DNA of 64,000 nucleotides, taken from positions 13,991-77,990 of the forward strand of contig JAZQBI010000069.1 in NCBI GenBank assembly GCA_045545635.1, in the 5' to 3' direction. The DNA is from Clostridia bacterium (lineage in GTDB: Bacteria; Bacillota; Clostridia; UMGS1810). A program made the translations under genes and the position numbers. The notes under the pieces are model-generated. The model was not told the origin of the DNA and did no database searches. It saw only the letters and a program-made list of their open reading frames with translations. The first letter of the stretch is position 1. Each line of letters starts with the position of its first letter. Of this stretch, positions 32,845 through 54,065 are shown piece after piece.

Positions 32845-32877
32845 TTGCTTCTCAAGTCTTTGACTTAATAATAAAAA

Positions 32878-32970: not shown

Positions 32971-33064
32971 GTCAATAGTTGGGTTAAAATTAAATTCAAT
33001 AACCGAATTATTTTATATCTCACCTATCAATTGTATCACAACATATTTTTTATATGTTCTCTTA

Positions 33065-33093
33065 TTGACATAGCAAGGCAAGTGTAATAGAAT
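33065..33093 (+). promoter_or_regulatory. Sigma-A-type promoter
   Basis: TTGACA (33065-33070), 17-nt spacer, TAGAAT (33088-33093). Confidence 0.55.
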
Positions 33094-33191
33094 AAAGAAG
33101 ACGATTCAATACATAAATTATCTTGTTTTCTTCTTATCAGGAAAATGGCGGTAATTAATAAATCAAAATCTTTATGCACGGAGGGTACATT

Positions 33192-33953: not shown

Positions 33954-33960
33954 TATTCAA

Positions 33961-34026
33961 AAAGAGACTGTCTCTTTAAACACATTATTTTATGCTGTAT
34001 GGTGTTTAAAGAGGCAGTCTCTTTTT
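33961..34026. terminator. Bidirectional terminator, 23-bp stem with one mismatch
   Basis: AAAGAGACTGTCTCTTTAAACAC (33961-33983) pairs with GTGTTTAAAGAGGCAGTCTCTTT (34002-34024). Lies between convergent genes. Confidence 0.8.
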
Positions 34027-34029
34027 ATG

Positions 34030-35226: not shown

Positions 35227-35323
35227 ATAAATCATTCCTTGCATAATATTCAAATCCGTTTTGGGTGCGTTAATCTTGGTGCCATTATATCAAAAAAGCC
35301 AGTACCGTGCAATAGATTATCTT

Positions 35324-35362
35324 AAAAAAGCGAACTTTTTTCTTCAAAAAGCGAACTTTTCG
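35324..35362. promoter_or_regulatory. Direct repeat AAAAAGCGAACTTTT x2 with 21-bp phasing, plus a third half-site; candidate operator of the orphan regulator
   Basis: GCGAAC occurs at 35330 and 35351, and CGAACT again at 35391. Located in the divergent region between the regulator and the SBP gene. Confidence 0.45.
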
Positions 35363-35483
35363 TTTTAATAAATAAAAAACATTAAAAAAACGAACTAAAT
35401 TCAAAAAAAAGAGAATATACTTTTTGAAATTCGAATGTTAGAATAATATATGTAAAAAAAGCAGACAAAAAAGAAAAGGAGAA

Positions 35484-36926
35484 ATGAAAATGAAAAGAAT
35501 TATTGCTCTTATCTGTCTTCTTTGCATGGCAGTGACCTTGTTTGCAGGTTGCGGTGACAAAAAGGATGACGAAGGTGTTGAACTTCTTTGGTATGTTCCC
35601 GGTGATGTTCAGCCCGATCAGGAACTTGTTATGACAGAAGTCAACAAGATCCTTAAAGAAAAAATCGGTGTAACACTCAATATTCAGTTTATTCCTACAT
35701 CGGCTTACGCAGAGCGTATGAAGATGACAATGGCATCCGGTGCAAAGTATGACCTTTGCTTCACATCCAACTGGCTCAACTACTACGATCAGGCAGTTGA
35801 CAACGGTGCTCTTTACGATATAACAGAGCTTGTCGAAGCAAACCCCGAGCTCTATGATGTAGTACCCAAAAGATACATAGACGGCATAAAGGTGGACGAT
35901 AGAGTTTATGCTTTCCCCAATATGCAGATTATGGCTCAGCCTCTTGCAGTATGGGCAAGAAAAGACCTTCTTGAAAAATACAATTTTGACCTCCAGAGTG
36001 TTGAACACATAAATGATATTGAACCCTTCCTCGAAATGGTTAAAGAGGGCGAAGATGGTATTTATCCCTTCAGAACCAAATGGGGCCCTGCATTCTGGGT
36101 TAATGCTGACTGGGGCGAACAGAAGGCAACAGGTCTTTGGTTCAACTACACAACCCACGAATTCAAGCCCAGATTTGAGGTTCCCGAATACATTGAACAT
36201 GTAGAGACATTCCGCAGATGGTATCAGAAGGGTTATATCCGTGCAGATGTTGCAAGTGCCGGAGATGACACTACAGATTCCAAACAGAATAAATATGCTG
36301 TACAGATGTCAGGCTACAAGCCCGGTCAGACTAGTCCCGATAGTCAGACAAACTGTGAATATGATTACAAGGTGCTCCTCACACTTCCTATGAGCGAAGG
36401 CTGTGCTGCAGCTACCATGACAGGTATCAGCATCACAAGTAAGCATCCCGAAAAAGCATTTGAGCTTATCAAGCTTGTCAATACTGACAAAGAGCTCTAC
36501 AACCTTATCTGTAACGGTATAGAAGGTAAACACTACAAGCTCAACGAAGAAGGCAAGATTATCCCCGATCCAAACTCAGGCTATCATCCCGATGTTGACT
36601 GGGAATTCGGTAATCAGTTCAATGCCCTTATAGACGAGGGTATGCCCGATGATGTATGGGAGCAGACTAAGGAACTCAATGAAAATTCAGAGATGAGTCC
36701 TCTTTCCGGATTTACTTATGATGACACAGAAACAAGCCTTGATATAACAAATGTTGTAGCGGTAATGGATGAGTATGTAGACTATATCACTCCCAAGGAC
36801 TTTGAAGCATACAAGAAGGAATACAATGTGAAGATGAAAGCTGCAGGGGCTGACAAGGTTTATGCAGATATAGAAAAACAGGTTAAAGCCTTCCTCAAAG
36901 AGAACGGTATAAAACCCCGGAAATAG
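35484..36926 (+). CDS. ABC transporter solute-binding lipoprotein (large LplA-type sugar SBP)
   Basis: Lipobox LFAGC after MKMKRIIALICLLCMAVT. About 480 aa, typical of oligosaccharide SBPs. No permease or ATPase genes are adjacent. Confidence 0.8.
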   Translation: MKMKRIIALICLLCMAVTLFAGCGDKKDDEGVELLWYVPGDVQPDQELVMTEVNKILKEKIGVTLNIQFIPTSAYAERMKMTMASGAKYDLCFTSNWLNYYDQAVDNGALYDITELVEANPELYDVVPKRYIDGIKVDDRVYAFPNMQIMAQPLAVWARKDLLEKYNFDLQSVEHINDIEPFLEMVKEGEDGIYPFRTKWGPAFWVNADWGEQKATGLWFNYTTHEFKPRFEVPEYIEHVETFRRWYQKGYIRADVASAGDDTTDSKQNKYAVQMSGYKPGQTSPDSQTNCEYDYKVLLTLPMSEGCAAATMTGISITSKHPEKAFELIKLVNTDKELYNLICNGIEGKHYKLNEEGKIIPDPNSGYHPDVDWEFGNQFNALIDEGMPDDVWEQTKELNENSEMSPLSGFTYDDTETSLDITNVVAVMDEYVDYITPKDFEAYKKEYNVKMKAAGADKVYADIEKQVKAFLKENGIKPRK

Positions 36927-37034: not shown

Positions 37035-40000
37035 ATGAAAAGATTTTTTGCATTTTTATTGGTGCTTGCCATCACTTTAGGGGCAATGCCAATGGGCATT
37101 ATGGCTTCCGGCGAGGTGTACACTGACTTTGTGAAAGGAAGCATAGAAGATAACCTTGTAGTAAACTTCAAGGACTCCTTCTGGCATGCCAACACCCTCA
37201 ACGATTCCAGAGTTTCCCTTACGGGAATCAATTGGATCAACGGTGTGGGATATGCCGGTGCATCTATGACCGCCAAGGAGGATATACCTACGGTTGCTTC
37301 CCATTATGGCAGTGCAGGTATGGCAATAGGTACTTCAACCAATGCCACACATCCAAAGATAGAAAAAGAAGCAGATTCATACGCTATAGGCGAAAGATAT
37401 GTCTTTAAATTTGCGGCACGCAACATTAATCCCGACATTTCCGCTACCATAAGATTAGGTGTGTTCAACGGCACATATTCCGGTGTGGAATCCAGAGACT
37501 TTCTCCCCGTGACAGAGTATCCAAACGGTGAGATAGTGCTTCCTCAAAGCGGAGAATGGGTTACTGTGGAGGTTGTTTTGCCATCCTCCCCAAACAGAGC
37601 TGTTCCCGCAATACGTCTTGGCTTTGTCAAAGGCACCAAAGCAGGTGCATCGGTAGAGTTCAATGCCTGCCATCCCGGTGTTCAGCAGGTCTACTATGCG
37701 GAGGAAACTGCTCACAGCATAGAGGCAGACATTGTTTCTGGCGAGAATACACTGGGTGCAAAAGCCTCCATAACTCTCACCGCTTCGGTATTCAATCAGC
37801 TTGAAGAAAAAGGCAACTTAAGTCAGGAATTTGACTGGGCTTTGCTTGACTCCCAAAAAAGCCAAGTAACCGAAGGCTACACCATTACGGATAATGGCAC
37901 AAGTGCCAATGTTACCTTTGCAAATACAGATCTCAATAATGGCGATTACACAATAGTTGCCACCTCAAGGGAATACGGAATTTCAAGATTTATTCCCATA
38001 ACTGTCAGGGCAAAATTTGAGCTTCCCGAGTACATTCCTGTTTCCTCTGATGATAACCTTATCGAAACACCCACAAAGTCATCTATGGTAAGCACCGGAA
38101 CATCCAATATCGTACACGGCAAGACAGACGGTCTTACATATCCTGAAATATATACGGTTTGTGCAAGTGCAGATGTTGATGCACCTGCACACACCTGCTA
38201 TGAGCACGGTTTCCTGTACAAAAAGCTTGAGCCCGAGGGCGGCTATGTTGCAGGCGATAAATATGTTTTTTCTGTTTGGGTACGAAACTCCGGAGATGCT
38301 CCCACAAACTTTATTGCAGGACTTTCCAATGCGTATAATGTACCTACACAATACGGTTCCAACCACGGAAGCGAAGGCATATATCTTCCCAATGACGGCA
38401 AGTGGTATCACTACAAGGAGATATTCACAATGCCGGGTCCCAGGCCTATACTTAGTGCAGGCTTGCCTGCAGGAACAAAGGCAGGTGCCTCGGTAGATAT
38501 CAATCTTACAAATTCCGAACTTTCACCCTCTTATTTTGCAAAAGAGGTTGTTGCGGATATAGAGGCAGCAGCTTCAAAGCTTACTGCAAATAAGGGCGAA
38601 ACAATTACGATTGATGCCACTGTGGCAAATCAGCTTGGAGATGAAGGTTCACTGGCTCAGAACTTCAAGTGGGATGTTCTGGACGAGGATAAAAACTACA
38701 AGGATAGCGGTTATACCTTAAGTGCAGACGGTGACAAGGCATCTCTTACTGTTAATACGGAAGAAGCAGAAAACATATATGTGGCGGTAACTTCAACCGA
38801 TTACAATATAGTGCGTATGGTTCCCGTATCTGTAAACGGAAAGAAAGCTTTTGTGGATTTTGTAAAAGGCGAAATGCCTAAGAATCTCATTGCAGATCCC
38901 ACCGCAACAGATCATTTTGCAGATGCAAGTGCAAACTACAATGTGGAGGAAACCGGTGATTACAGACTGGAGCTTTCCAGTACATTTACCGCAAAGGCAG
39001 ATGTTACATCCTATGGTGCAGCTCACACCAAAGCCAGCGGTTTCCTTATCAAAAGCGGAAACACAGGAATCAGCACAGATTCCCTTCTTACAGGCGGAAC
39101 TCCGTATGTGTTCAGTGCCGATGTAAAGAATGCCAACGGCACAGGGGACATTGTTCTTGACGTGAGCCTCAGTAACTCAAATTACTGGACTGCGTCAAAA
39201 CCTGTGGAAACCTCCGCCGGCTACACAATTCCTGCAGGAGACGAATGGTACAAGGTTGCCGCAACCATGAAGCTTCCCGGTGACGTGGGAGCAGAATACA
39301 AGCCTTACCTTATCTTTGGCTTTGGTATAGGCACCAATGCAGGAGACAAATTTGAATTAAACAGAAAATACCCCACGGCAGATGCAATGTACTTTGCACC
39401 CGAGGAGGCATATGACATAAAGGTAACCAATCTTTCGGACAGTATGACGGTACAAAAGGGTAACGAAATTTCCTTTGGTGCCGAGGTATTGAATCAGATT
39501 GGTTCCACAGGATACTTAAATCAGAACTTTACCTGGTATGTAAGAAAAGCTGACAACACAGATGCTTCATCTTACTTTACCCTTGAAATAAGCGAAGACA
39601 CAAAAACAGTAACCCTCATTCCCAAGTCAAAGGCAAAGGGCGGTAAATATACCGTAATTGCCGCATCTGATGACTATGAGGAGCTTGTGAGGTTTGAGGA
39701 CTTTGTAGTTGCGGATTCCTCCACAACTCTCTATGTAGCTGTTGACGGAAGCGACAGTGCAGAGGGCACATCTTCCGAGCCTCTTGCAACACTTCAGGGT
39801 GCAATTGACAAAGTTGCAGAACTCAGAAAAAATAATATAACTGTAAACGAGGTTATATTTGCCCCCGGAGAATACCGTTTTACAGAAGGTGCGGTTTTTG
39901 GTAAAAAGGATGTTTACGATGTTCCCGTTACATTTAAGGCAGAAGAAAAGGGAACAGTAGTATTCAAAGGCTCCCAAAAGCTAAATCCCACAGACTTTAA

Positions 40001-42386
40001 GCTTGTGGAAGATGATAGCATTACATCACGCTTTGCTCCCGGTATGAAAGGCAAGATATACAGTCTGGATCTTGCAAAGGCAGGATACACTCCCGCGGAT
40101 ATAACAGATGTAACCCTCATTAACGGTCAGTACGGTCTCACAAGTCAGGGTGAATTCAACACCCTCTATTATGACGGTGTTGAGCAGACTGTTTCTCAGT
40201 GGCCCGACAGCGGTTATGCCATAAAGGGCGATCAGGAGCAGTACAATTCAAACAGTGTCAACTCAAAGGACGGTCTCTCCTTTACATATTACAGAAGCGA
40301 TATAGACCTTATGCTTCCCTCCATCAACTGCGACAGATGGGCAGATGCAAAGAATTTCTGGATTTCTTCTTTTGAGCCCTACGATTACAGCAGGTTCAGA
40401 TATTATGTAAAATCCATTGATACCACGTCTCACACAATTACGATTTGCGATAACCCCGCTCAGAAGCTTGCAAATGAGCGTTCGGGAAGATGGAAAGCAT
40501 TTAACTTAATAGAGGAAATCACTCTCCCCGGCGAATATGCCATAGATACGGAAAATATGATGCTCTACTATTATCCCCAGGGTGCACTGGGTACCTGCGA
40601 TATAGAGTTTTCCACACTTTCCGGTGCTATGATAAGTATTGCCAATTGTAAGAACATCATATTTGACTCTATTGTATTTACCCAGACACGGGATGATGCA
40701 ATAGTAATGACAGATGTAAGTGATATATCAATCCTTAACTGTGATTTTACCGACATTGCTTCCATTGCTGTTCAGACTTCGGGTTCACAGTATGCCGTAA
40801 GCGGCAGAGAAAGCTGGCAGGCACAGCGTAAGAACGGTGCCAATAATGTAGTTGTAAAAGGCAACAACTTTATTAACATCGGTCAGACAGCGGTTCAGCT
40901 ATCCGGCAGCGGCGATGTGGATACTCTCACAAGTTCGGGCAACTTAATCGAAGATAACTACATAAACAATACCTCCAACAAGTCATTCTGGGAGGCGATA
41001 GTTCTCGGCGGCTGCGGAGTAACTGTACGAAACAACAACATAAGCTCCGTTCCCATGCAGGCAATAAGAGCCTGGGGCAGTAACCACCTCATAGAATACA
41101 ACGAAATCTACGATGTAGTTACCGAGGATGCCGACTGTGCGGCTATCTACTGGGGCGGAAGCTCAATCTTTCAGGGTACGGTAGTCCGTTACAACTATAT
41201 TCACGATACCGTGGGTACAGTGTCCGGCGGTCAGGTTGGTATTTATTGGGACGATATGCAGCTCGGTCAGAGTGCAAAGTACAATATCCTTGCAAACCAG
41301 GACATAGACTTTAACTCCAACGGTGCAGGAGCAACGGTGCACAGCTACAACACCACCTATGTTGCAAACAAGCACCTTAACCATCACGACCACGCATCCC
41401 GCGGTGAGGACACAATAACAAGAGACTTAAACTATACCTCTCTTGAAGCAATACGAAATGATATTGCAGACCTTGACCTTTACTACAAGAGATATCCCTA
41501 TCTTGAAAATGTAATAGGCAAGGGTAACAATCCAACAAAGTACACAAGTATTATAGGTAATCTTGCAGTAGATGTTGGCGGAGTGTATCTCCAGAGCAAC
41601 GCACCAAAATATGCGGTTATATCAGGAAACACTCAGCTTGATTCCACAGATGCGTTTAATGATGTTGATTCGCAGGATTTCCGACTCAGAGCGGATTCGG
41701 AGCTTGCAAAGGCTAATCCCCACATTCTCAATACCGAAAACTTCGATATAGAAAAAATCGGTCTTTTGAGAGAATTTGCCCTTGGCACCTTTGATGCTGC
41801 CTATCCTGCAAACGGACAGTATGTTTCAGGTGAGATAGGACCTATAACCCTTTCCTGGAATACGGCGGCAGGTGCAAACCGCTATAATGTCATTGTGGCA
41901 AGGGATGCGGCACTTACAGATGTTGTGTTTGAAGACACTCTTATGTACAGCAATGTTATGCTCCCGTCACTTGAAAACGGCACATACTACTGGAAGGTGA
42001 CTGCGGTTAACACCTCAAGGGAATTTGCATCCCAAAAGGATGCAGAGGGAGGAGTAAGAAGGTTTATTGTTTCCTCCGCTCCTGCAGATGTTGCAATAAC
42101 CGAGCCGATAGTCACTGATTCTGACAGTCTTGACTTCCGCATTACATACAACGGTTCCGACTCGCTTTGCTTTGATGTGTATGTGGCAGGCTACTCGGAT
42201 GACGGAAAACTTGAGTTTGCAAATGTGCACGCAATAGAGAATGCTGCAGGCGGCAGCTCCTTTGACATAAACAGCATAGTAAATGACAACAAGCTCAAGG
42301 GATGCACAATGTTTAAAATATTCACCTGGAAGAATGGTCTTGTACCTCTCAAAGGCGGATTTAAGATGTTTTACAATAAAAAATAA
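37035..42386 (+). CDS. Giant secreted protein A: 3 x (CBM-like + Ig-like) + right-handed beta-helix region + Fn3-like + shared C-terminal module
   Basis: 1783 aa with signal peptide. Three ~180-aa beta-rich modules open with NLVVNF.../NLIETP.../NLIADP..., each followed by an Ig-like module with the N/LNQLG..G.L.Q.F.W string. The beta-helix region (about 39721-41770) starts LYVAVDGSDSAEGTSSEPLATLQGAIDKV and has repeated N-rich rungs (VVVKGNNFINIG, VTVRNNNISS, IEYNEIYD). Confidence 0.75.
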   Translation: MKRFFAFLLVLAITLGAMPMGIMASGEVYTDFVKGSIEDNLVVNFKDSFWHANTLNDSRVSLTGINWINGVGYAGASMTAKEDIPTVASHYGSAGMAIGTSTNATHPKIEKEADSYAIGERYVFKFAARNINPDISATIRLGVFNGTYSGVESRDFLPVTEYPNGEIVLPQSGEWVTVEVVLPSSPNRAVPAIRLGFVKGTKAGASVEFNACHPGVQQVYYAEETAHSIEADIVSGENTLGAKASITLTASVFNQLEEKGNLSQEFDWALLDSQKSQVTEGYTITDNGTSANVTFANTDLNNGDYTIVATSREYGISRFIPITVRAKFELPEYIPVSSDDNLIETPTKSSMVSTGTSNIVHGKTDGLTYPEIYTVCASADVDAPAHTCYEHGFLYKKLEPEGGYVAGDKYVFSVWVRNSGDAPTNFIAGLSNAYNVPTQYGSNHGSEGIYLPNDGKWYHYKEIFTMPGPRPILSAGLPAGTKAGASVDINLTNSELSPSYFAKEVVADIEAAASKLTANKGETITIDATVANQLGDEGSLAQNFKWDVLDEDKNYKDSGYTLSADGDKASLTVNTEEAENIYVAVTSTDYNIVRMVPVSVNGKKAFVDFVKGEMPKNLIADPTATDHFADASANYNVEETGDYRLELSSTFTAKADVTSYGAAHTKASGFLIKSGNTGISTDSLLTGGTPYVFSADVKNANGTGDIVLDVSLSNSNYWTASKPVETSAGYTIPAGDEWYKVAATMKLPGDVGAEYKPYLIFGFGIGTNAGDKFELNRKYPTADAMYFAPEEAYDIKVTNLSDSMTVQKGNEISFGAEVLNQIGSTGYLNQNFTWYVRKADNTDASSYFTLEISEDTKTVTLIPKSKAKGGKYTVIAASDDYEELVRFEDFVVADSSTTLYVAVDGSDSAEGTSSEPLATLQGAIDKVAELRKNNITVNEVIFAPGEYRFTEGAVFGKKDVYDVPVTFKAEEKGTVVFKGSQKLNPTDFKLVEDDSITSRFAPGMKGKIYSLDLAKAGYTPADITDVTLINGQYGLTSQGEFNTLYYDGVEQTVSQWPDSGYAIKGDQEQYNSNSVNSKDGLSFTYYRSDIDLMLPSINCDRWADAKNFWISSFEPYDYSRFRYYVKSIDTTSHTITICDNPAQKLANERSGRWKAFNLIEEITLPGEYAIDTENMMLYYYPQGALGTCDIEFSTLSGAMISIANCKNIIFDSIVFTQTRDDAIVMTDVSDISILNCDFTDIASIAVQTSGSQYAVSGRESWQAQRKNGANNVVVKGNNFINIGQTAVQLSGSGDVDTLTSSGNLIEDNYINNTSNKSFWEAIVLGGCGVTVRNNNISSVPMQAIRAWGSNHLIEYNEIYDVVTEDADCAAIYWGGSSIFQGTVVRYNYIHDTVGTVSGGQVGIYWDDMQLGQSAKYNILANQDIDFNSNGAGATVHSYNTTYVANKHLNHHDHASRGEDTITRDLNYTSLEAIRNDIADLDLYYKRYPYLENVIGKGNNPTKYTSIIGNLAVDVGGVYLQSNAPKYAVISGNTQLDSTDAFNDVDSQDFRLRADSELAKANPHILNTENFDIEKIGLLREFALGTFDAAYPANGQYVSGEIGPITLSWNTAAGANRYNVIVARDAALTDVVFEDTLMYSNVMLPSLENGTYYWKVTAVNTSREFASQKDAEGGVRRFIVSSAPADVAITEPIVTDSDSLDFRITYNGSDSLCFDVYVAGYSDDGKLEFANVHAIENAAGGSSFDINSIVNDNKLKGCTMFKIFTWKNGLVPLKGGFKMFYNKK

Positions 42387-42403: not shown

Positions 42404-45079
42404 ATGAAGAGAATATTAAGCACAATCCTTATTCTTGCAATGATGCTGTCTGTAATGCCTGTCATTGGTATGGCAGAGGAAACTGCAGATGCACCTTATG
42501 CAGACGGCGTAGGGGAAATTCCGGAAAATCTCTTTTCGAACCCCAAGAACTCATCATTGTGGTATACTAACCCCACATATGTAAACAGTACAACTGTTCA
42601 GACAAAGAACGAGTGGACCTCCGACGGATTTGCAGGCTATGCCTTCAAAACAACAGGCATCGTTACAAACAAAACAAACGGTTGGCAGGTTGCCGCAGGC
42701 AGCAGATTGATTCCGGCACAGTTTAACGACTATACTGCAACCGAGGGTGAGCACTATGTAATTAAGTTTGCCGTACGCTCCCTTACCGAAAACACCGGAT
42801 TCGGTGTAAGGATCGGTACATGGAACGGTGCTTATTCCGGAACCAGTGCAGATGTAAGCCAAATTATGGATTACGAAAACGGTGTTGCGAATGTTCCCGG
42901 TGACGGCCAGTGGCATACAATAAAGGGCACATTACCTGCACTCAGGGCAAACGATATAAACGACAGCGGAAAGATTCGTATGGTTCTTGTTGGTATGGCA
43001 GCCGGAACTCCTGCAGATGTTACAATGGAGCTTAATAACCACTATAAGGAAATCCCCGATGATGTTCCTTACTTTGCAAAGGAAGAGGTTGCACAAATCA
43101 ACCTCGAAGCCGATAAGGATGTTGTCGAAGCAGGTGACACAGTTACTCTTACTGCCGAGGTGTTAAATCAGATTGGTACTCAGGGTGCTATCGACCAGGA
43201 AGCGATTAACTGGTATGTAACAAATGAAGAACGCACCGAGAAGATAGAGCTTGCAAATGCATTTGAATTTGACGGCTGTGAAATGACAGTCGGCACAGGT
43301 GCTCCTGCAGGAAACTACTATATAGTTGCAGAAAGTGCGGATAACACCGATGTGAGAAAGGGTGCAGCCATAACTGTCAAGGAACCCGTTAAGGAGGACT
43401 ATGTTCCTGTTGACACAGAGGACGGCAAGGCTTACGACATTACTCTCACATGCACAAGTGAGGAAAGAGAATACTACACATCTTTAAACGAGCTTACACT
43501 TACAGCTTCCCTTGTAGACAAGGACGGAAAAACCGACGGAATAGACCAGAACGTAAGCTGGATAATTCTCGATTCCGAAAAGAGAAACGAGGTTACAGAC
43601 GGCTTCTTTACTGCATCCGAGGGCGGCAGCATCACCGTTAACTTCGATGCGGCACTTCCCGAGGGCACATACTATGTTCGTGCCTATAAGGATGGGGACG
43701 TAATGTTCGGTAAGAACTTCCCTGTGGTTATAGACAACACATATATTCTCAGAGATATTATTGAAGAAATTAATGATAATGACGAAAACTTAAAGGAAAA
43801 TCTTCCCAAGTATCTTCCTTATATAGATGCAGAAAATGAGCTCTATGACGAAACAGACAAGGACAATTTTATTACTGTTCTTGCATCTATGGCAGAAGAG
43901 GAAGAATTTACTGCAGATAATCTAAAAGAAAGATTTATGCTTGCCTGCATAATTTCTCTCCACAATATACCTTCCGAAAATGCGGAGCTTTTCGAGGGAA
44001 CATCCTTTGTATACGAAAAAGAGCTTGGACTGGATAAAATTGCAGATGGCGGCTCCGACCTTTATTCCAAGGTTTATGCAGAGGGCATTACCGATGCAGG
44101 AAGAGAAAAAATAAAAAATGCTGTATCAATGGCAAAAACACAGAAAGATTTTGTTGATACATTCTGCAAAAGCACACTTCTTTGTGCAATTTCCGACAGT
44201 ACATATCTTGGTACAAACTATGTAACAGAGCTTCTTACTAAGGAAAATCTGGAAGCCGCAGACATAGAGGCTGAGGGCTATCTTGCATCCGAGGCAAAAG
44301 AGCTTTATGAAGATGAAATAGCTCACAACACTCTCACAAAAGCACAGCTTGAAGAAATCCTCAAAGAAGAATATGAATATGAGGAGGAAACCTCCTCAGG
44401 CGGAAGCTCAGGCGGTTCAGGCAGCGGCGGAGGCCGTGGCGGCAGTGTGTCTGTTGCAGGTCCCGCGGTAAGCGTGCCTGTTGCTCCCAAGAATGAAGAA
44501 ACCAAGGAAGACAAAGAGGACAAGGATATAAGCTTTAATGATGTTGACGAAAAGCACTGGGCATTTGTAAACATTCAGTTCCTTGCAAAGCTTGATGTCC
44601 TTAAAGGTGACGACAAAGGCAACTTCAATCCCGAAAAAGAGATTACAAGAGAGGAATTTGTAAAGGTTCTGGTAGAGGCATTTGACCTTGCCGGATCGGC
44701 AGATGTTTCCTTTGGCGATGTAAAGAGCGGTGCGTGGTACGAACAGTATGTAAAGACCGCTGTTGCAAACGGCATCATAAACGGTAAGGCAGACGGCACC
44801 TTTGGTGTTGGCGAAGCTGTAAGCCGTGAAGATATGTGTGTTATGATAGCCCGTGTTCTCAAAATGGGTGAGGATGCAGAAGGCTCTCTAGGTTATTCCG
44901 ATGAGGCCAGCATTGCTCCATATGCAAAGAACGCAGTAAGCTATTTGAGCATGCTCAGTATGATAAACGGAATGCCCGATAACACCTTCCGTCCCAAGGA
45001 TGCATGTACCCGTTCTCAGGCGGCAAGAGTTATTGCAGATATTCTCAACTATAATGTAATGGAGGTAAACGGCAAATGA
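42404..45079 (+). CDS. Secreted protein B: CBM-like + 2 Ig-like + helical region + Gly/Ser linker + three C-terminal SLH repeats
   Basis: 891 aa with signal peptide. Linker SSGGSSGGSGSGGGRGGS. SLH strings FNDVDEKHWAFVNIQFLAKLDVLKGDDKGNFNPEKEITREEF, FGDVKSGAWYEQYVKTAVANGII and FRPKDACTRSQAARVIADIL. Starts 17 nt after gene A. Confidence 0.8.
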   Translation: MKRILSTILILAMMLSVMPVIGMAEETADAPYADGVGEIPENLFSNPKNSSLWYTNPTYVNSTTVQTKNEWTSDGFAGYAFKTTGIVTNKTNGWQVAAGSRLIPAQFNDYTATEGEHYVIKFAVRSLTENTGFGVRIGTWNGAYSGTSADVSQIMDYENGVANVPGDGQWHTIKGTLPALRANDINDSGKIRMVLVGMAAGTPADVTMELNNHYKEIPDDVPYFAKEEVAQINLEADKDVVEAGDTVTLTAEVLNQIGTQGAIDQEAINWYVTNEERTEKIELANAFEFDGCEMTVGTGAPAGNYYIVAESADNTDVRKGAAITVKEPVKEDYVPVDTEDGKAYDITLTCTSEEREYYTSLNELTLTASLVDKDGKTDGIDQNVSWIILDSEKRNEVTDGFFTASEGGSITVNFDAALPEGTYYVRAYKDGDVMFGKNFPVVIDNTYILRDIIEEINDNDENLKENLPKYLPYIDAENELYDETDKDNFITVLASMAEEEEFTADNLKERFMLACIISLHNIPSENAELFEGTSFVYEKELGLDKIADGGSDLYSKVYAEGITDAGREKIKNAVSMAKTQKDFVDTFCKSTLLCAISDSTYLGTNYVTELLTKENLEAADIEAEGYLASEAKELYEDEIAHNTLTKAQLEEILKEEYEYEEETSSGGSSGGSGSGGGRGGSVSVAGPAVSVPVAPKNEETKEDKEDKDISFNDVDEKHWAFVNIQFLAKLDVLKGDDKGNFNPEKEITREEFVKVLVEAFDLAGSADVSFGDVKSGAWYEQYVKTAVANGIINGKADGTFGVGEAVSREDMCVMIARVLKMGEDAEGSLGYSDEASIAPYAKNAVSYLSMLSMINGMPDNTFRPKDACTRSQAARVIADILNYNVMEVNGK

Positions 45080-47934
45080 TGAAGAGAATACTATCCTTCG
45101 CACTGGTACTTTGCCTTGTACTTGGCCTCGCTCCGTCCCTGGGTGCTTTTGCCTTTGATGCAGAAGCTTCCGGATATACAGAGGCAGAAGGACTCTTTAT
45201 GAGTCTCGGCATTATTGACAAAGACAGCTATGAGCCCATGTCAAAGCTCACCAGAGCAGAATTTGCATACATAATTGCAAAGACTGCAAGACTTGTAGAT
45301 GATGATATAACAAGCGTATGGCAGGAAGAGAATTTCGGGGATATTCCTCAGGGCACAGTAGAGCCCGCCACATCAATGTTTGATGATGTGGACCCTGCAA
45401 ATGAGTACTACGAAGCTATAGCCGCAGTAAAAACTGCAGGATATATGAACGGCGTGGGAGAAAATCTTTTTGCTCCCGACCTTCAGCTTATCACATCCGA
45501 AGCGGTAAAGGTTATTGTAGATACCCTTGGCTACGATGTTATGGCAAAAAATTACGGCGGATATCCCGATGGATATCTTACTGCCGCAAACAAGCTCAAG
45601 CTCCTATCCGGAGTTGGAAGTGCCTACAATGAATTTATAACCAAGGGCGACCTTTTTGCAATCCTCGGCAATGCTCTTGATGTTGGTGTTGGCGAATTTG
45701 TGGGCATCAGCGATGACTATCTGGAAATCAAAGGAAGCAAGGAAAACTCCTTTATGACCGAGGTTATGGGTATAGCCAAGGTAGAGGGAAGAATTACCGA
45801 CAACGGTATTACCGCAGTCAACTCCTCCACAAAGCTCGACAGCGACTATATGTCAATTGGCGGAATTAAGGTAATTCACTCCAAAAACACAAAGAAATTC
45901 CGTTCCCTCATAGGAAGAGAAGTTACCGCTTACTATGACATTACCGATGAAACCAAGAATATTCTTGTTCATGTGGAAGATGCCGACAGAGATGTTACAG
46001 AAATATCTGCGGATAATTTTGCTTCATACAGCAATGGTGTAATAACTTACTATGACGGCAAAAAGAATGTGGATATCAACATTGGAAAAAATGCCCGTAT
46101 GATATACAATGGTGCATATCTGGGCAACTACACAGCTTCTGATTTTGATATTGAAGACGGTACCGTAACCGTTATTGATGCATCGGATATAAATCTTGTG
46201 ATAGTTGAAGATATGAAAAATATTTTTGTATCTACCGTAACCGAGACTTCCGTATATAGCAAGCTCAGCTTTGCCCCCATCGGAGACGAAATAAAGTCAA
46301 TAAACCTTGAAGAGGGTGAGGAGTTTGACAATATCGACATCATAAGTGCCGATGGCAAGACTCTTACTGCATCCGATATAGGTGTTGGCGATGTGCTTTC
46401 CGTTGCGGCAAGCAAAAACGGTGAATATGCAAAAATAATAGTTTCCGAAAAAGTGCTTTCCGCCTCTCAGATTATTTCTTTTGACGGAGAAAATTACGAA
46501 ACTTCCGAGGGAGAAATCACAGCATCCCAAGCATATACAAAGGCTATCAACAAAAATGATCCCGAATTTAACGCTCTTCACGATATCTACCTTAATGCTT
46601 ACGGCAAAATCGTATGGGTAGAAAAGGCAGGCGAAGCTGTTTCCGACAAGGTTGCAATTCTTCTGGATGCGGCAGACGGCTCCAACGGCTTTGCAGATGA
46701 TTTTGCAGTTAAGTTCTATACAGACAACGGCAAGATTACAGTATATAAGCTCTCTGACAAGCTTACATTAAACGGAAAGAAAATTGATGTTAAGGATGCC
46801 CTGTCTACCCTCAAGGCAGAACAGGCAAAACCCGTTCTTTATGTGGAAAAAGACGGCATTGTGACAAAAATTACAACACCTGCTCCCTACGGTACAGACG
46901 GTTCCGTCGATAAACGCGGTTGGTACAAGGTAACTCACGACATAGAACACTATGAACAGGGAAGCCTCTCCACAAACGACTGGAATGCATACAGATGGAA
47001 GTACTACTATATCTACTCCAATGCAGGTAACGGTGCGGCATACACCATCCGTACAGACGGAAGCCAGACAGGTCCCCGTGCATCTATACTTACTCATAAT
47101 GCAAACACAAAGTTCTATTCTGTTCCTACAAATCCCGACGATTTTGACAATGACAAGTTCTTTAGCATAGTAACTAAGCCTTCTTTCCCCGAAAACGCAT
47201 ACTTTGCAATAGACGGTTATTCCAGAACTGCAAAGAACCCCAGCCCCGAGGTTATGGTTCAGAGAAAGAACGCAAAGGGAAGCGGTACTCCCGGCGAGAG
47301 CAGTGCATTCCTTATTACCAAGGTTAAGAACGGTGTAAATGTGGATGAGGATAACATTGTAATTCTCGAAGGCTACGACATCAAACAGGGCAGTGCCAAG
47401 AAGAACTCCCTCAAGGTAAATGTTGATGCAATAATGCTTGACGAAGAAAATGAGGAAATTGACGTAAGTCAGAATGAGTCGGCAGTCGGCCCCAGAACCT
47501 ACAAGGAGCTTGAAGCAGGCGATATCATCCGTTACAGCACAAATGCTCTTGGCGAAATCAACACAATGAGAATATCCTTTGACTACAACACGAAGAATGC
47601 ATTTGAAAGAAGCGGCGGTTATCACACTGCATCCTACGGTGCTGTAATGAGTGTCAATGCCGATGCCCTCAAGGTTGTAACCGGCGGTCTTTTACCCGAG
47701 AACTTTGATTACAGCAGTATCGAAAATGTTACATCAACCAGAGTATATCCGCTTCTTCCCAGCTCTGTTGTAATAATTGCAGAAAAGGATGCAAGAGGCT
47801 CACTCACATTCCGTATGGGAACAGCAGGGGACATCATAGCATACGAAAACACTCTTGTTCCCGGAGAATATGACAATGTTGCCACAGTTGCTCACTGGTT
47901 CGGCGGATTTTTGGCTACTGTTATATACAGATAA
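45076..47934 (+). CDS. Secreted protein C: three N-terminal SLH repeats + long beta-rich region (S-layer paralog)
   Basis: 952 aa. ATGA overlap with the gene B stop, and GGAGGT lies 9 nt upstream. SLH strings LGIIDKDSYEPMSKLTRAEFAYII, FDDVDPANEYYEAIAAVKTAGYMNG and FAPDLQLITSEAVKVIVDTLGY. Same architecture as the proteins at 7506-9746 and 29950-32844. Confidence 0.8.
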   Translation: MMKRILSFALVLCLVLGLAPSLGAFAFDAEASGYTEAEGLFMSLGIIDKDSYEPMSKLTRAEFAYIIAKTARLVDDDITSVWQEENFGDIPQGTVEPATSMFDDVDPANEYYEAIAAVKTAGYMNGVGENLFAPDLQLITSEAVKVIVDTLGYDVMAKNYGGYPDGYLTAANKLKLLSGVGSAYNEFITKGDLFAILGNALDVGVGEFVGISDDYLEIKGSKENSFMTEVMGIAKVEGRITDNGITAVNSSTKLDSDYMSIGGIKVIHSKNTKKFRSLIGREVTAYYDITDETKNILVHVEDADRDVTEISADNFASYSNGVITYYDGKKNVDINIGKNARMIYNGAYLGNYTASDFDIEDGTVTVIDASDINLVIVEDMKNIFVSTVTETSVYSKLSFAPIGDEIKSINLEEGEEFDNIDIISADGKTLTASDIGVGDVLSVAASKNGEYAKIIVSEKVLSASQIISFDGENYETSEGEITASQAYTKAINKNDPEFNALHDIYLNAYGKIVWVEKAGEAVSDKVAILLDAADGSNGFADDFAVKFYTDNGKITVYKLSDKLTLNGKKIDVKDALSTLKAEQAKPVLYVEKDGIVTKITTPAPYGTDGSVDKRGWYKVTHDIEHYEQGSLSTNDWNAYRWKYYYIYSNAGNGAAYTIRTDGSQTGPRASILTHNANTKFYSVPTNPDDFDNDKFFSIVTKPSFPENAYFAIDGYSRTAKNPSPEVMVQRKNAKGSGTPGESSAFLITKVKNGVNVDEDNIVILEGYDIKQGSAKKNSLKVNVDAIMLDEENEEIDVSQNESAVGPRTYKELEAGDIIRYSTNALGEINTMRISFDYNTKNAFERSGGYHTASYGAVMSVNADALKVVTGGLLPENFDYSSIENVTSTRVYPLLPSSVVIIAEKDARGSLTFRMGTAGDIIAYENTLVPGEYDNVATVAHWFGGFLATVIYR

Positions 47935-47952
47935 TGAAAGGTGCGAAATAAT

Positions 47953-50900
47953 ATGAAAAAATTACTTGCAGTTTTTCTTGCATCGCTTATGATTTTTTCT
48001 GCTATTCCCACTTTTGCATCTGACGGTGTGACGGATATCTATGTATCCGTCACATCCGGAAGCGACAGTGCCGTTGGCAGTGCACAAGCTCCCTTGCGTT
48101 CAATAGAAGCGGCGCTCAGCATTGCAAAAAATGAGCTGGCACTGGGCAAGGCCGTAAATATTATTTTAAGAGGCGGCGAATACAGATTAAATAATGTAAT
48201 AACTCTCAATAATACCTATTCCGGTGTATCTGCAGAAAAACCCCTCACCATCAAAGGCTTTGAGGGCGAGGAGGCAGTGTTCAAGGCATCACAGGTGATA
48301 GATGTAACAAATGCACAGCCTGTTACCGACGAAAAGGTACGCGAGAGACTTTACGAGGATGTAAGAGATAAGCTTATTGTGGTTGACCTTGGTGCTCAGG
48401 GAATTGATTCAGGACATATTTTCCAGTCCCACAATGTCAACAACAACTATCAGTTAAATCAGAATACAGAGGGTAACTTCCTTAAGGCTTCTGAATACAA
48501 CTGTGTGTATGTGGACGGCAAGGAACAGTCGCTCTCCCGTTGGCCCAATGACCGTCACTACGCAAGATGGACAAAGGCGTTAAACGACCAGACCTTCTAC
48601 TACGAGGATGCAGAGCCTTCCCGATGGACACAGGCTAAGGATTACTGGTATGCAGGATTTCCTACATATGACTATTCTTTCTCCAGAATGAGCATAAAAG
48701 AAGTTAATCCTGAGGAAAAGACAGTTAAACTCATAGATAAGCCTGTCGGTGCTCTCACAAGCTATATGACAAGACGCTGGGCGGCATATAACCTCTTGGA
48801 AGAGATAGATGTCCCCGGAGAATTCTACATAGACAGAGACAATATGCTCCTCTACTTCTATCCCCCATATTCCTTAAAGGATGCCAAGGTGGAATTATCC
48901 ATAGCGGAGACACCTGCATTTCTTGTGGACGGTGCAAAGAATATTATCTTTGAAAACTTAAACTTTGACCAGTTCAGAGGAAACGCATTCTACGCAAGAG
49001 ATGTAGACAATGTGGATGTAATTAACTGTAATTTCCAAAATATCGGTGTAAATGCTATTAAGTATGCCGGCGGTGTTCCTGCCGAAACAGGTAAGAACCA
49101 CTGGGCAAAGCAGAGCAAAAATCAGTCCTTTAATTGTGACATACGAGGATGTAACTTCTACAACTTGGGTATGGCGGCAGTGGATATGGGCGGCGGTGAT
49201 GTTGACCTGCTTATCCCCTCCAACAACGTAATTGAAGACAACTTCATAAACCGCGTTGCACAGAGGAGTATGTGGGAGGCAATATCAGTCCGTGGTATGG
49301 CAATAACAGTCCGTAATAACAACTTTTCCAACGGTACAGGCAATGCCATAAGACCTTGGGGAAGCCAGCAGCTTATTGAATACAATGAGTTTTCCAGCTT
49401 CACCAGAGAAAACGACGACTGTGCGGCTATTTATTTCGGCGGAAGTATGCTTTTCCGCGGAACGCAGGCAAACTACAACTATCTGCACGATTTGCCATCA
49501 ATAGAGCCAATGGTATATAACGCAAAGGTTGCTCTCTACTGGGACGATGCCCAGAGCGGTAACTCTGCACAGAACAATATTCTTATGGGTACCAAGACGG
49601 CATTTAACTCCAACGGTGCCGGTGCAACAACTCACCGATGGAATTTTGCTATTGACGTTACAAACCCCTTTAACTTAATCGACCACCAGCACAGAACAAA
49701 CGAAACCATAACCATGAGTACCTACTATACTCTTGAGGAAACCCGCAACAACATTCCAAATAAGGAGCTTTACTACAAGGCATATCCCACAATGGAACAG
49801 GAAATGAGCGGTGTCAACCCCAAGAAGTTCAGTAAGATATACGAAAACATGGCTTTCCGTACAGGTCCCTACAAGATTGGTAAACAGGAACAGCAGTTCT
49901 CTTACCTCAAGGATAACCTGGTGTTTGATAATCTGGATATGTTCGTAGATCCCGACAATCATGACTGGAGACTAAAGGCAGACAGCGAGCTTGCAATTAA
50001 GTACCCCAATCTTATAAACGAAAATAACTTCTCTATGGATAGTATCGGTCTTAAGACCAAGAGAACACTGGACGAAACAACGGCACCCTTCAAGATGCTC
50101 TACCCCCGTAACGGTGCGGATGCAGTATCTGCAATAGACCACGAATTTTTGTGGGAAAATGCCTACGGTGCAACTCACTACCGACTTGTTGTGGCAAAGG
50201 ATATAGACTTTACCGATATAGTATATGACGATATTGTTTACCACTGCTCAACTACTCTGGATTGTCTGGAAAAGGGCACAACCTACTACTGGAAGGTTGA
50301 GGCTATGAGCTTCTCCAAGGAATTTACAACCCCCTGGAAGTCCGAGAGTGGTGTATGGGCATTCAGAACAGCCATCAATGACGAGATAGATACATACAGT
50401 GCAACTCTTGCGGTAGAAACCGCATTAAAGCGTGCGGATACCATCCGTGAGGGCAATGTTGCAGGCGACTACAAGATAGGAACAAAAAAGAAACTCTATC
50501 AGTATGCAAATCTACTGAGCTTCTTTACCAAGGGCAAGCTCCCAATGCTTACTCAGGCAAGACTTGATTCCTATGCAGAGCTTGTTTCGGGCTATCTTTC
50601 CAATCCTGACCTTATCAATGCGGGATATATGGACCTTTCCACCCACTTTATCCCTCACGAATGGGACGGTGACCTTACGGTAACCAAGGACTATGTACTT
50701 ATCGAAAATGATGAATACAAAAATCACTTTGTCGGTACAAACAGCCTTGATGCCACAACGGGAAATGTTATCTACTGCTTTGACGCACAGGTTGAGCTTC
50801 CGGAGGAGCCCGGTGCATGGATGAGCCTTGGCCTAAGTCTCTACAATGACCGTAACCAGTACACCAGTGTCAATATGGGTTACTACATAGTTCTCAAGGA

Positions 50901-51669
50901 TAACCTCATTGAGCTCCAGAGGGTAACAGGAAGTAAAAATCAGATTATAGCCACTGCCGACTATCAGGTGGTGGACGGCAGCCGTCACTCCTTCCGTTTC
51001 GGAAGAGTTAAGCTTGATACAGGTAACTACATTACCATATTTATAGACGATAAACCAATATTTATCTATCCCGATGTGGACGGTACAGAGCTTAGCAGTA
51101 CAAACCAGTTTGTAACCTGTATCTACAACGGCGGCACAACGGTTAAGTATCTGCCCTATGGCGGAATTCTTCCCGACAGTGCGGCATTTGAAGCTCACAA
51201 GGTTCAGGGACTCAAGGATTCCGTAAAGGCTATTTACGATGTGTATGCAAAGGAATTTACAGATTACGCCATAGTAAATGTAAACTCTAAGAGAATTATG
51301 ACAAATAAAGGTCTCTACGAGATTTCCGCAGCTCCCGTGGCAAACGATGCCAACGAAGTCTTTGTAACCAAGGATACATTGGAAAAGATGTTTGCCGTAA
51401 CTGTCAGCATGGGTGCAGCCTCTGCTGATGTAACTCTGGACGGTGTGACGGTTACCACTCCCGTTCACAATAAGAACGGTGTGGATATGATTTGTATTAA
51501 TGATGTACTCTTAAAGCTCAACAAGAGCTTTACCTACGACTGGCAGCATGGAAACCTCATTGTTGCGGGTGACGGTAACCTTGTTGTGCTAAACGAGGGT
51601 ACAAGACTCCAGAAAACAAAGGAAATATTCATTGCAACAGAACATCTCGGTTCCTTTGATTTCAACTGA
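47953..51669 (+). CDS. Secreted protein D: beta-helix region (paralog of A) + Fn3-like + helical region + jelly-roll (LamG-like?) + C-terminal copper-amine-oxidase-N-like domain
   Basis: 1238 aa from ATG 47953; the ORF-track GTG start is 47941. IYVSVTSGSDSAVGSAQAPLRSIEAAL opening. Long blocks are collinear with protein A, for example VRNNNFSNGTGNAIRPWGSQQLIEYNEF...DDCAAIYFGGS. Confidence 0.75.
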   Translation: MKKLLAVFLASLMIFSAIPTFASDGVTDIYVSVTSGSDSAVGSAQAPLRSIEAALSIAKNELALGKAVNIILRGGEYRLNNVITLNNTYSGVSAEKPLTIKGFEGEEAVFKASQVIDVTNAQPVTDEKVRERLYEDVRDKLIVVDLGAQGIDSGHIFQSHNVNNNYQLNQNTEGNFLKASEYNCVYVDGKEQSLSRWPNDRHYARWTKALNDQTFYYEDAEPSRWTQAKDYWYAGFPTYDYSFSRMSIKEVNPEEKTVKLIDKPVGALTSYMTRRWAAYNLLEEIDVPGEFYIDRDNMLLYFYPPYSLKDAKVELSIAETPAFLVDGAKNIIFENLNFDQFRGNAFYARDVDNVDVINCNFQNIGVNAIKYAGGVPAETGKNHWAKQSKNQSFNCDIRGCNFYNLGMAAVDMGGGDVDLLIPSNNVIEDNFINRVAQRSMWEAISVRGMAITVRNNNFSNGTGNAIRPWGSQQLIEYNEFSSFTRENDDCAAIYFGGSMLFRGTQANYNYLHDLPSIEPMVYNAKVALYWDDAQSGNSAQNNILMGTKTAFNSNGAGATTHRWNFAIDVTNPFNLIDHQHRTNETITMSTYYTLEETRNNIPNKELYYKAYPTMEQEMSGVNPKKFSKIYENMAFRTGPYKIGKQEQQFSYLKDNLVFDNLDMFVDPDNHDWRLKADSELAIKYPNLINENNFSMDSIGLKTKRTLDETTAPFKMLYPRNGADAVSAIDHEFLWENAYGATHYRLVVAKDIDFTDIVYDDIVYHCSTTLDCLEKGTTYYWKVEAMSFSKEFTTPWKSESGVWAFRTAINDEIDTYSATLAVETALKRADTIREGNVAGDYKIGTKKKLYQYANLLSFFTKGKLPMLTQARLDSYAELVSGYLSNPDLINAGYMDLSTHFIPHEWDGDLTVTKDYVLIENDEYKNHFVGTNSLDATTGNVIYCFDAQVELPEEPGAWMSLGLSLYNDRNQYTSVNMGYYIVLKDNLIELQRVTGSKNQIIATADYQVVDGSRHSFRFGRVKLDTGNYITIFIDDKPIFIYPDVDGTELSSTNQFVTCIYNGGTTVKYLPYGGILPDSAAFEAHKVQGLKDSVKAIYDVYAKEFTDYAIVNVNSKRIMTNKGLYEISAAPVANDANEVFVTKDTLEKMFAVTVSMGAASADVTLDGVTVTTPVHNKNGVDMICINDVLLKLNKSFTYDWQHGNLIVAGDGNLVVLNEGTRLQKTKEIFIATEHLGSFDFN

Positions 51670-51786: not shown

Positions 51787-53907
51787 ATGAAAAGATTGTT
51801 ATCAATCTTTGTTGCCATGCTTATGGTAACAACAATGTTAGTACCGAGTGTAGGAGTTTTTGCAGAGGAAACAGAGACAGCGTTTGATCCTTTTGCAGGG
51901 GATTATGTTGCAGGGGAACTTCCTGCTAACCTTTTTCAGAATCCTACAAATGCTATGATTATTGCAAGTAATACACCACAAAGCCTTACACGTGCTTCAT
52001 GTAGTGACTATACATCATACTATCTTCAAATTAATGAAGATTATGTGGCAAGCGGTACAAATTACAACAAAGGTCTTATAGGTACACAGCTTCTTGCCAA
52101 CAATGCTGCAAATATCAGCTTCCCCGAAAAGCTCACCGCAGGCAAGTCCTATGTATATAGCTTTGATGCTATGAACTACGGAACAACCGATAGCTTTGTA
52201 TATAACATGGCATTGGGTACATCTGCAGGATGGACGGCAAACTATTCTGTTGAAAAAGGTGCGGAAGGTTTTGTTATTTCTGACAAAGAAAATTGGACCA
52301 CAGTAGCCGGAACACTTGTAATGAAGGGTACTGCAGGAGATAACACAGCAACAACTTATCTTTGTTCCGGTTTCCAGAATGCAAAGGCAGGCAGTGCAAT
52401 AAGAGTAAGACACAGTGCAAGCTCTCATCCTTATTTGGCAGAGGAAGCACTATATGACATATCCTTTACTGCAAAGAGCGGCAACACCGTTATAAAGGGT
52501 GTTCCTGCAACTTTTGAAGCAAAACTATTAAACCAGATTGGTTCTACCGGAACACTTAATCAGGATGTATTTACATTCAGCGTATTCGGTGCTGACGGCA
52601 ATGCAGTAGAAGGTCTTACCGTTTCCGAAGACGGAGCTGTTTCTGCAACAGATGCAGTGGCAGACGGCACATACTATGTAAGAGCTATCGCACAGATAGA
52701 TGAAGAAACAACATGGAACAAAACTCTTGAAATCAATGTTGCAGGTGCAATAGAAAATACTGATGACCATGTAAAAGGAGAACTTAACGATAATATTGTT
52801 AATCCGAATAATCCTTTCAAGGGACAGACAGCTGGTGCAGTTGCTTGGAGTGGTCAGAATCTTCCTTCAGATGTAACTGTCGATATGGGCACGCAGTATT
52901 ACACAGCCTTTAAAACTTCATCATCTGCTTATACAAATTCCGATTATTGGGGTGTTGGCGGCAGTTTTATGCTGGACAAAAATACATCTGCAAGCTTTGT
53001 TCCGGAAGAGAATACTACTTATGTACTTGAGGCGACTGTTCGCTCTTTATCCGGAGAACAGTACCTGAACTTGGTATATACCTCTGGTTGGAGTTTAGCT
53101 AAAACAAGATATTCAAATGAATATGGTTCAGAAGGTAAAAAAATAGGAACTGAATGGGAGACATTTAAGGCAACTGTAACCACGAGCACAACAAGTGCGA
53201 ATGCGAATGGAATTCTCCTTGGATTAAGAAAGACTCCGGCGAATGATTATCTCATTATGAACCACTCTGCGGGCTTCTACTTTGCAAAAGAAAAAGCACA
53301 CGACATCAATGTAAAGGGTGCTTCTGCTTCTGTTAACAGTGGCGAGACACTTAATTTAGAGGCAGAACTCCTCAATCAGATCGGCACAAAGGGAACTCTT
53401 ACACAGTCCTTTGATTGGGTAGCAGTAACCGAGGACAGACTCTCCTATGTAGACGGAATTACATTCACCGAGACAAACGACGGTGCAAATGTTACCGTAA
53501 ATGTTGCAGACACAGTTGCTGCAGGAGATTACCTTATAGTTGCACAGGATAAAACCTACGGCATGAACAGACAGTATCCAATTACTGTTACAGTACCCAC
53601 CTATGACGTGACAGAGCTTGCTGTTACAACTACATCAAGCAGTGCATTCGTTGATGCTATAAGCGTAAATGCAACAGAAGATGTAATGGTTGTTATTGCA
53701 GGCTTTAACGGTGACAAGCTCGTGAAAGCGAAAAAGGCAGTTCTGACACCTGCAGACGGTGTTGCAACACTTGCAGAACTTGCAGAAGCTCTTGAAATCA
53801 CAGGACTTACTGCAGGCAACAAGGTGAGAGTATTCGTATGGACAGCGGATGATTATACACCTCTTACAATGAAAGCAGCTGACAAAGCACCCAAAACAAT
53901 AGAATAA
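51787..53907 (+). CDS. Secreted protein E: 2 x (CBM-like + Ig-like) + shared C-terminal module
   Basis: 706 aa. RBS AAGGAG and signal peptide. Modules open NLFQNPTNAMI and NIVNPNNPFKG. The C-terminal ~200 aa are closely related to those of protein F. Confidence 0.75.
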   Translation: MKRLLSIFVAMLMVTTMLVPSVGVFAEETETAFDPFAGDYVAGELPANLFQNPTNAMIIASNTPQSLTRASCSDYTSYYLQINEDYVASGTNYNKGLIGTQLLANNAANISFPEKLTAGKSYVYSFDAMNYGTTDSFVYNMALGTSAGWTANYSVEKGAEGFVISDKENWTTVAGTLVMKGTAGDNTATTYLCSGFQNAKAGSAIRVRHSASSHPYLAEEALYDISFTAKSGNTVIKGVPATFEAKLLNQIGSTGTLNQDVFTFSVFGADGNAVEGLTVSEDGAVSATDAVADGTYYVRAIAQIDEETTWNKTLEINVAGAIENTDDHVKGELNDNIVNPNNPFKGQTAGAVAWSGQNLPSDVTVDMGTQYYTAFKTSSSAYTNSDYWGVGGSFMLDKNTSASFVPEENTTYVLEATVRSLSGEQYLNLVYTSGWSLAKTRYSNEYGSEGKKIGTEWETFKATVTTSTTSANANGILLGLRKTPANDYLIMNHSAGFYFAKEKAHDINVKGASASVNSGETLNLEAELLNQIGTKGTLTQSFDWVAVTEDRLSYVDGITFTETNDGANVTVNVADTVAAGDYLIVAQDKTYGMNRQYPITVTVPTYDVTELAVTTTSSSAFVDAISVNATEDVMVVIAGFNGDKLVKAKKAVLTPADGVATLAELAEALEITGLTAGNKVRVFVWTADDYTPLTMKAADKAPKTIE

Positions 53908-53960: not shown

Positions 53961-54065
53961 TAAGTGAATAATTTTCCGAACACAAAACAGTAAAAAACCG
54001 AATTGTAACATCAAAAAAAATATAGTAAAATAATTATATTATTTAGAATTGGAGGATTGTACATA

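Follow-up and report, generated by a model that had tools for sequence, protein, structure and literature searches.

Two described C-terminal modules offer the closest comparisons for the element analysed here, an unannotated module of about 100 amino acids (aa) at the extreme C-termini of three secreted proteins from a Clostridia bacterium (lineage UMGS1810). The proteins are encoded in a 64,000-nucleotide stretch of DNA, hereafter the window (assembly GCA_045545635.1, contig JAZQBI010000069.1, positions 13,991–77,990 of the forward strand), where genes A–F form a cluster and A, E, and F carry the module. Carbohydrate-binding module (CBM) family CBM37 of Ruminococcus albus (the 'X' module; Xu 2004, Ezer 2008) is ~100 aa long, C-terminal, and tandem in some proteins (PMC4081043). 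It occurs on many secreted carbohydrate-active enzymes (CAZymes) and non-catalytic proteins, almost never with a dockerin, binds wall carbohydrate plus many polysaccharides, and has been read as an alternative device by which proteins are kept on the cell; it is reported from R. albus only (PMC4081043). The WxL domain is likewise C-terminal, contains tryptophan, and mediates non-covalent surface retention in gene clusters of Lactobacillales and Bacillales (PMC5817068, PMC10599100), where it docks on the cluster-encoded, membrane-anchored partner WxLIP (PMC10599100).

CBM37 is the closest functional analogue, as the window module is also ~100 aa, mostly C-terminal, sometimes tandem, present on secreted CAZymes, and rarely combined with a dockerin. 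Membership in CBM37 was rejected: the R. albus 7 protein WP_013483737 (GH11-CBM22-GH10-CBM37, L004:4611–7316) scored −3.9 bits against the module hidden Markov model (HMM). By eye, its CBM37 resembles a sequence of fibronectin type III (FN3) type and is without the A-x-Y / F-x-W...P signature of the module, and tblastn of the modules against plasmids, including pRUMAL02 of R. albus 7, gave no match. WxL clusters follow the same docking logic that an initial annotation of the window had proposed for the module, namely attachment of enzymes to the wall or to partners anchored by S-layer homology (SLH) repeats. The module differs from WxL (as defined in PMC5817068) in its length of ~100 aa and in having a single F-x-W-[DN]-x3-[LM]-x-P motif of other spacing. 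None of 54 diverse modules matched the WxL family PF13731.

Dockerins are calcium-binding, helical, duplicated segments of about 70 aa. The initial annotation had considered the module analogous to a dockerin in function and unrelated to it in sequence; the latter part stands, since the module model is all-beta and no Pfam match to dockerin (PF00404) appeared at E thresholds of 1 to 10, while the functional analogy is one that we infer. SLH (PF00395) was rejected as well, with none in A, E, or F and none in the 46 full-length module proteins surveyed.

A conserved C-terminal module family

One module of ~90–105 aa recurs in homologous copies at the C-termini of A, E, and F, as pairwise comparison shows for E and F and a family profile for A. 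The initial annotation had aligned them by eye, and its ranges (53590–53904, 42090–42383, and 57900–58199) are the in-frame last 105, 98, and 100 residues of E, A, and F, with the quoted strings present in all three translations. By the envelope of a broad family HMM, the module of E occupies 53584..53904 (plus strand; aa ~600–706) and that of F 57891..58199 (plus strand; aa ~1279–1381). These two share 57% identity over 104 aa (E 4e-34; 57–59% across comparisons). The copy in A (42111..42383, plus strand; aa ~1693–1783) is divergent, with weak pairwise matches of 24–25% identity to the modules of E (E 0.014) and F (E 0.001). To keep the test of A non-circular, the family profile was built from 68 database relatives without A, its orthologues, or A-like sequences, and was searched against all 336 stop-to-stop open reading frames (ORFs) of the window. 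It recovered E at 1.6e-27, F at 1.5e-25, and A at 3.3e-7, the match in A covering residues ~1693–1773 at the extreme C-terminus. No other copy was found among these ORFs, the next-best having an E value of 0.14. The same profile matched the C-termini of A orthologues in three further loci (L003, L006, L007) at 5e-9 to 6e-6. The reported distribution of domains in the cluster was also borne out: the module is missing from B, C, and D, and SLH from A, D, E, and F, B has three SLH repeats, and C has an SLH domain. The description of the carriers as enzymes does not extend to E, in which no catalytic domain is recognisable.

Word-indexed protein searches with the module alone or with a 54-module alignment were uninformative, as the word filter misses short divergent modules. 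When 1.84 billion representatives were searched exhaustively with a profile, 76 matches at E ≤ 1e-3 emerged. Eleven of the 76 were rejected as spurious, being sums of partial matches in unrelated proteins with VTVxGLxAGDxVRVY or FG-GAP-like repeats, one of them with SLH. Nine of these had a best single-domain score <10 bits when re-scored with the broad HMM, and the other two (P0055, P0066) were set aside for their pattern of many partial stretches. About 65 clusters (at 50% identity) carry the module. In 54 diverse modules the motifs of the initial annotation emerged as the family signature: A37-x-Y39, K43-L44, G57, [VI]79-[KR]80-x-F82-x-W84-[DN]85, and [LM]89-x-P91. Conservation was highest at Y/F39 and P91 (both 100%), K/R80 (99%), W84 (98%), F82 (93%), and A37 (87%), followed by L44 (76%), K/R43 (74%), and G57 (69%).

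No Pfam model matched the three window copies or the 54 diverse relatives at E ≤ 1, and PDB sequence profiles returned only noise, with no sequence-level relative of the module. The sole recurring signal in NCBIfam was FxLYD (NF038353), borderline in 3/54 relatives: the module of P0078 scored 24.4 bits (curated cutoff 23), P0059 16.1, and P0074 14.3. This match spans ~42 of ~100 residues, covering the central x-A-x-Y-D-x-x-G-x-L hairpin and not the F-x-W...P end, and the NCBIfam scan gave no FxLYD match to the window modules of A, E, and F. We found no mention of FxLYD, an uncharacterised beta-sandwich domain, in the literature. AlphaFold2, run on a 10-sequence alignment, predicted an all-beta sandwich like that of immunoglobulin (Ig) domains with a short terminal helix (predicted local distance difference test 94, predicted template modelling score 0.84). 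The model has seven strands of three or more residues plus shorter bridges and the helix. Its best Foldseek matches in the PDB were FN3 monobodies, Ig-like domains of glycoside hydrolase family 2 (GH2), and TEAD, with E values of 4.5e-3 to 1.6e-2 and template modelling (TM) scores of 0.35–0.55. Foldseek against viral structures gave no match. The module is thus an unannotated family of the kind of terminal accessory beta-sandwich modules, outside any Pfam or PDB family.

Carriers of the module come from uncultured Clostridia and are multidomain proteins, exported by the Sec route, that act on or bind carbohydrates. Of 69 proteins, 65 have their last module ending no more than 10 residues from the C-terminus, as do 39/41 complete proteins with a signal peptide; signal peptides were present in all complete module proteins. 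Tandem terminal copies were found in P0031 (three), P0054, P0060, P0076, and the L005 protein. The sequences before the module belong to unrelated architectures, among them GDSL esterases, beta-helix enzymes, CBM4_9-like units, leucine-rich repeats of BspA type (LRR_5), cohesins, and LamG-like repeats, which indicates that the module is mobile. A role as a spacer is unlikely, as the module stands at the very end of the protein with nothing beyond it to space. Module genes tend to adjoin one another in pairs or triplets, with two in L012 (6735–15745), two in L016 (3–4043), and three in the window.

Missing anchors, domain swaps, and SLH neighbours

We compared the carriers with a list of known Gram-positive wall-attachment domains (PMC5817068). 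SLH, LPXTG, dockerin, LysM, WxL, CWB1/2, SH3b, and ChW were absent from all full-length carriers (0/46).

In two independent cases the module stands where related proteins have an anchor or docking device. The first is in the window, where residues 37–328 of B (42512..43387, plus strand) are 71% identical to residues 991–1283 of F (57027–57905; BLASTP E 8e-133). After this common unit of a CBM-like and an Ig domain, B continues through further non-catalytic sequence into three SLH repeats, and F goes directly into the module. The second is among cohesin proteins. Three adjacent cohesin genes in L009 (6571–11037) end, respectively, in a dockerin-like segment (assigned by reading the sequence), in three modules (P0031), and in three SLH repeats. 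Here the likeness to cellulosomes is that a terminal non-catalytic module sets the place of the protein, and the module replaces SLH or dockerin on paralogous cohesin proteins. In L005, a frame with ten CHB_HEX_C_1 repeats and a cohesin is followed by one TAA codon and then two modules in the same frame. Judged from domain order, the module fills the slot of an anchoring or docking device in the window B/F pair and in the cohesin proteins.

Several further observations concern these loci. The CBM-like+Ig units appear shuffled as cassettes, with the 71% match linking unit 1 of B to unit 4 of F, and by eye a B/F-type unit replaces the second unit of E in the E orthologues P0002 and P0005. Upstream of the L009 cohesin genes lies a gene for a 3452-aa Big_2/PKD/fn3 protein, and L009 looks like a small cellulosome-like system. 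Possible explanations for the in-frame TAA of L005 (5375–5377), which separates a 1782-aa ORF from the two tandem modules, are a sequencing error, a pseudogene, or read-through. In the gene calls the tail became a separate protein of 176 aa (P0074) whose start lies within a module.

Gene order A-B-C-D-E is kept in L003 (a Clostridia metagenome-assembled genome, MAG), L006, and L007, and B-C-D-E in two loci of ~30% identity (L001, L002). A genome scan with a single protein gave just one close MAG. Among more distant loci, L012 encodes two module proteins of different architecture, an SLH protein, a C-like protein, and beta-helix enzymes, and L014 has a C-like SLH protein directly upstream of the module protein P0075. 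The C-like proteins of L012 and L014 show this resemblance at 25–26% identity over ~600 aa (25% in L012). C-like genes adjoin module genes in L001, L002, L012, and L014, and overall a gene for an SLH protein adjoins a module gene in four of the six independent loci with usable flank, three of them with a relative of C. The initial annotation had drawn its proposal from three proteins; the pattern behind it extends well beyond them. No SLH neighbour was found in L005 or L016, on contigs of 7.5–7.9 kb with limited flank.

Proposed surface retention and alternative explanations

Our leading, tentative reading is that of a non-covalent surface-retention or docking module, a role we consider plausible if somewhat short of probable. 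Binding as such, and the identity of any target, we infer from the mobility of the module, the consistent absence of known anchors, the terminal position, the two swap cases, and the SLH neighbours. CBM37 and WxL offer precedent, as C-terminal modules that retain secreted proteins on Gram-positive surfaces. Such a module would keep proteins without SLH, sortase, or dockerin signals on the cell. It would bind either an SLH-anchored protein of the same cluster, with the C family the best candidate and B next, or a wall glycopolymer, and in this way the esterase, beta-helix enzymes, and CBM proteins of the cluster would be assembled next to the cell. Gene neighbourhood makes C the first choice of putative partner, with a wall glycopolymer just as possible. 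Retention or docking is favoured for E in particular because it consists of only CBM-like and Ig-like units beside the module, and a free-floating CBM-only protein makes little sense. A more specific proposal, that the module and C-family proteins form a new cluster-encoded docking pair, resembling cohesin and dockerin in logic with unrelated folds, is speculative and rather unlikely. On the wall of uncultured Clostridia from the gut or the environment, such a pair would bring together esterases, beta-helix enzymes that cleave polysaccharides, and CBM-only proteins.

If retention or docking were correct, the module would join a short list of such devices (LPXTG, SLH, LysM, WxL, CWB1/2, SH3b, ChW, CBM37, and dockerin), would explain what keeps the SLH-less members of a conserved cluster for polysaccharide degradation at the cell, and would provide a new tag with which proteins could be displayed on Clostridia. 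As a plain CBM or a cap, it would still be an unannotated family with a signature, a confident fold model, and ~65 clusters that could be curated.

A number of points weigh against retention or docking. The predicted fold is a generic Ig-like sandwich without a close structural neighbour, and the residues conserved best (A, Y, F, W, P) may be no more than core residues. The isoelectric point (pI) of the module is acidic, with a median of 4.6, which sets it apart from many wall-binding modules and matches the remainder of the proteins. Between the paralogues E and F, the module is 58.6% identical versus 82.7% for the preceding Ig domain. The initial annotation would have given up its proposal for a known accessory or simple Ig-like spacer domain found in any position, and this applies in part: a few internal or N-terminal copies do exist (P0065, P0078, P0080, P0061), against terminal placement on secreted proteins in nearly all carriers; the P0078 module has CBM32 and CBM6 modules and a GH29 domain around it, and that of P0080 is N-terminal to a carbohydrate esterase family 4 (CE4) domain. 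The search profile was seeded on C-terminal copies, so internal ones may be under-detected. SLH proteins are common in such loci and their adjacency may be partly due to chance, and L005 and L016 have no SLH neighbour within their flanks. Finally, a substrate-binding CBM would account for much of the same data.

This last explanation is the chief alternative. In it, the module is a new CBM that targets proteins to their polysaccharide substrate and not to the cell, which we regard as possible but unlikely. A beta-sandwich of this size, mostly C-terminal and sometimes tandem, is what many CBMs look like, and the K/R-x-F-x-W strand beside the A-x-Y strand could make an aromatic platform. The company it keeps also fits: GDSL esterases, beta-helix enzymes, a fucosidase, and CE4 among the carriers, the CBM32, CBM6, and GH29 neighbours in P0078, and P0031, whose cohesin and three modules resemble a CBM-bearing scaffoldin. 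However, substrate CBMs routinely share a polypeptide with SLH or dockerin, and the module does so in none of the 46 full-length carriers. E and F already have two to four CBM4_9-like units, Foldseek placed the module near no solved CBM, no Pfam CBM family matched, and a substrate CBM leaves the recurrent C-like SLH neighbour unexplained.

A structural explanation holds that the module is an Ig-like cap without a ligand that stabilises the preceding string of beta-sandwiches or protects it from proteolysis. We judge this improbable. The generic Ig-like or FN3-like fold, the distant FxLYD link through P0078 (24.4 bits against the cutoff of 23), the mostly hydrophobic conserved residues, the acidic pI shared with the rest of the protein, and a module that diverges faster between E and F than the Ig domain beside it are all in its favour, as is the model of whole E, an Ig-like string as in the assembly regions of Sap, SbsC, and EA1 (TM 0.13–0.15). 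A passive cap, however, is not expected to be so mobile across unrelated architectures, nor to show tandem ends, exclusion of every known anchor, and swaps with SLH. In addition, K/R80, which shares a strand face with F82 and W84, is 99% conserved, a pattern unusual for a face that is buried throughout.

A C-terminal sorting or secretion signal, recognised and possibly removed by a machinery for export or attachment, like the C-terminal domain (CTD) of the type IX secretion system (T9SS), would suit the extreme C-terminal position, the 80–100-aa beta-sandwich, and a loose likeness of the A-x-Y-x-x-G-K-L hairpin and G-x-x-V-K-V-F-V-W strand to T9SS CTD motifs (tested by library scans only), but is very improbable given that Por_Secre_tail (PF18962) and TIGR04183 were absent from Pfam and NCBIfam matches at E ≤ 1, that the signal peptides are ordinary Sec ones, that the organism is a Clostridia MAG and T9SS-like systems are not known in Firmicutes, and that tandem and internal copies misfit a cleaved signal.

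Cluster genes and surroundings

All six genes are on the plus strand. Gene A (37035..42386) encodes a secreted protein of 1783 aa with three CBM-like+Ig units, a right-handed beta-helix that is Pel9A-like in orthologues, an FN3-like domain, and the module. Gene B (42404..45079) encodes 891 aa, also secreted, in which CBM-like+Ig units precede three SLH repeats at the C-terminus (SLH E 4e-37). Gene C (45076..47934; 952 aa), the candidate anchored partner, carries its SLH domain at the N-terminus, ahead of ~750 aa. The SLH domain of the C family matches the full three-repeat domains of SpaA and Sap. No relative was detectable for the remaining ~750 residues, and a metagenome scan with a four-sequence C alignment matched none. 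Domain scans found no cohesin-like receptor in B or C. The stop of B and the start of C overlap by four nucleotides (ATGA, 45076–45079 of the window), an arrangement suggesting that translation of the two SLH proteins is coupled.

Gene D (47941..51669) encodes a 1242-aa beta-helix protein. The copper-amine-oxidase-N-like C-terminus ascribed to it found indirect support: hmmscan on D itself was silent, but its C-terminus aligns with the Cu_amine_oxidN1 domain (aa 1118–1204) of the 26%-identical orthologue in L002. A (~41750–42090) and D (~50100–50350) share an FN3-like domain after the beta-helix with the pattern W...GA..Y...T(Y)YW(K)V, located directly before the module in A and before other domains in D.

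Gene E (51787..53907) encodes a secreted protein of 706 aa with two CBM-like+Ig units and the module, and gene F (54057..58202) one of 1381 aa with a GDSL/SGNH esterase domain, CBM-like+Ig units, and the module. Relatives of the E units match CBM_4_9. The full-length model of E is a string of beta-sandwich domains. Its best Foldseek matches were S-layer assembly domains of Bacillus anthracis Sap and EA1 and of SbsC (E ~4e-11, TM 0.13–0.15), and complement MG arrays were also among the best, low-TM matches. The predicted likeness to S-layer assembly domains probably reflects just a string of Ig-like domains.

Upstream of the cluster, the window encodes a second C-like SLH protein (29950–32844) that is 22% identical to C, a SASA-type acetylesterase (33174–33953), an AraC-type response regulator (34030–35253, minus strand), and a solute-binding lipoprotein of a sugar ATP-binding cassette (ABC) transporter (35484–36926). 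Taken together, the genes of this region (29950–36926) look like one polysaccharide-utilisation locus.

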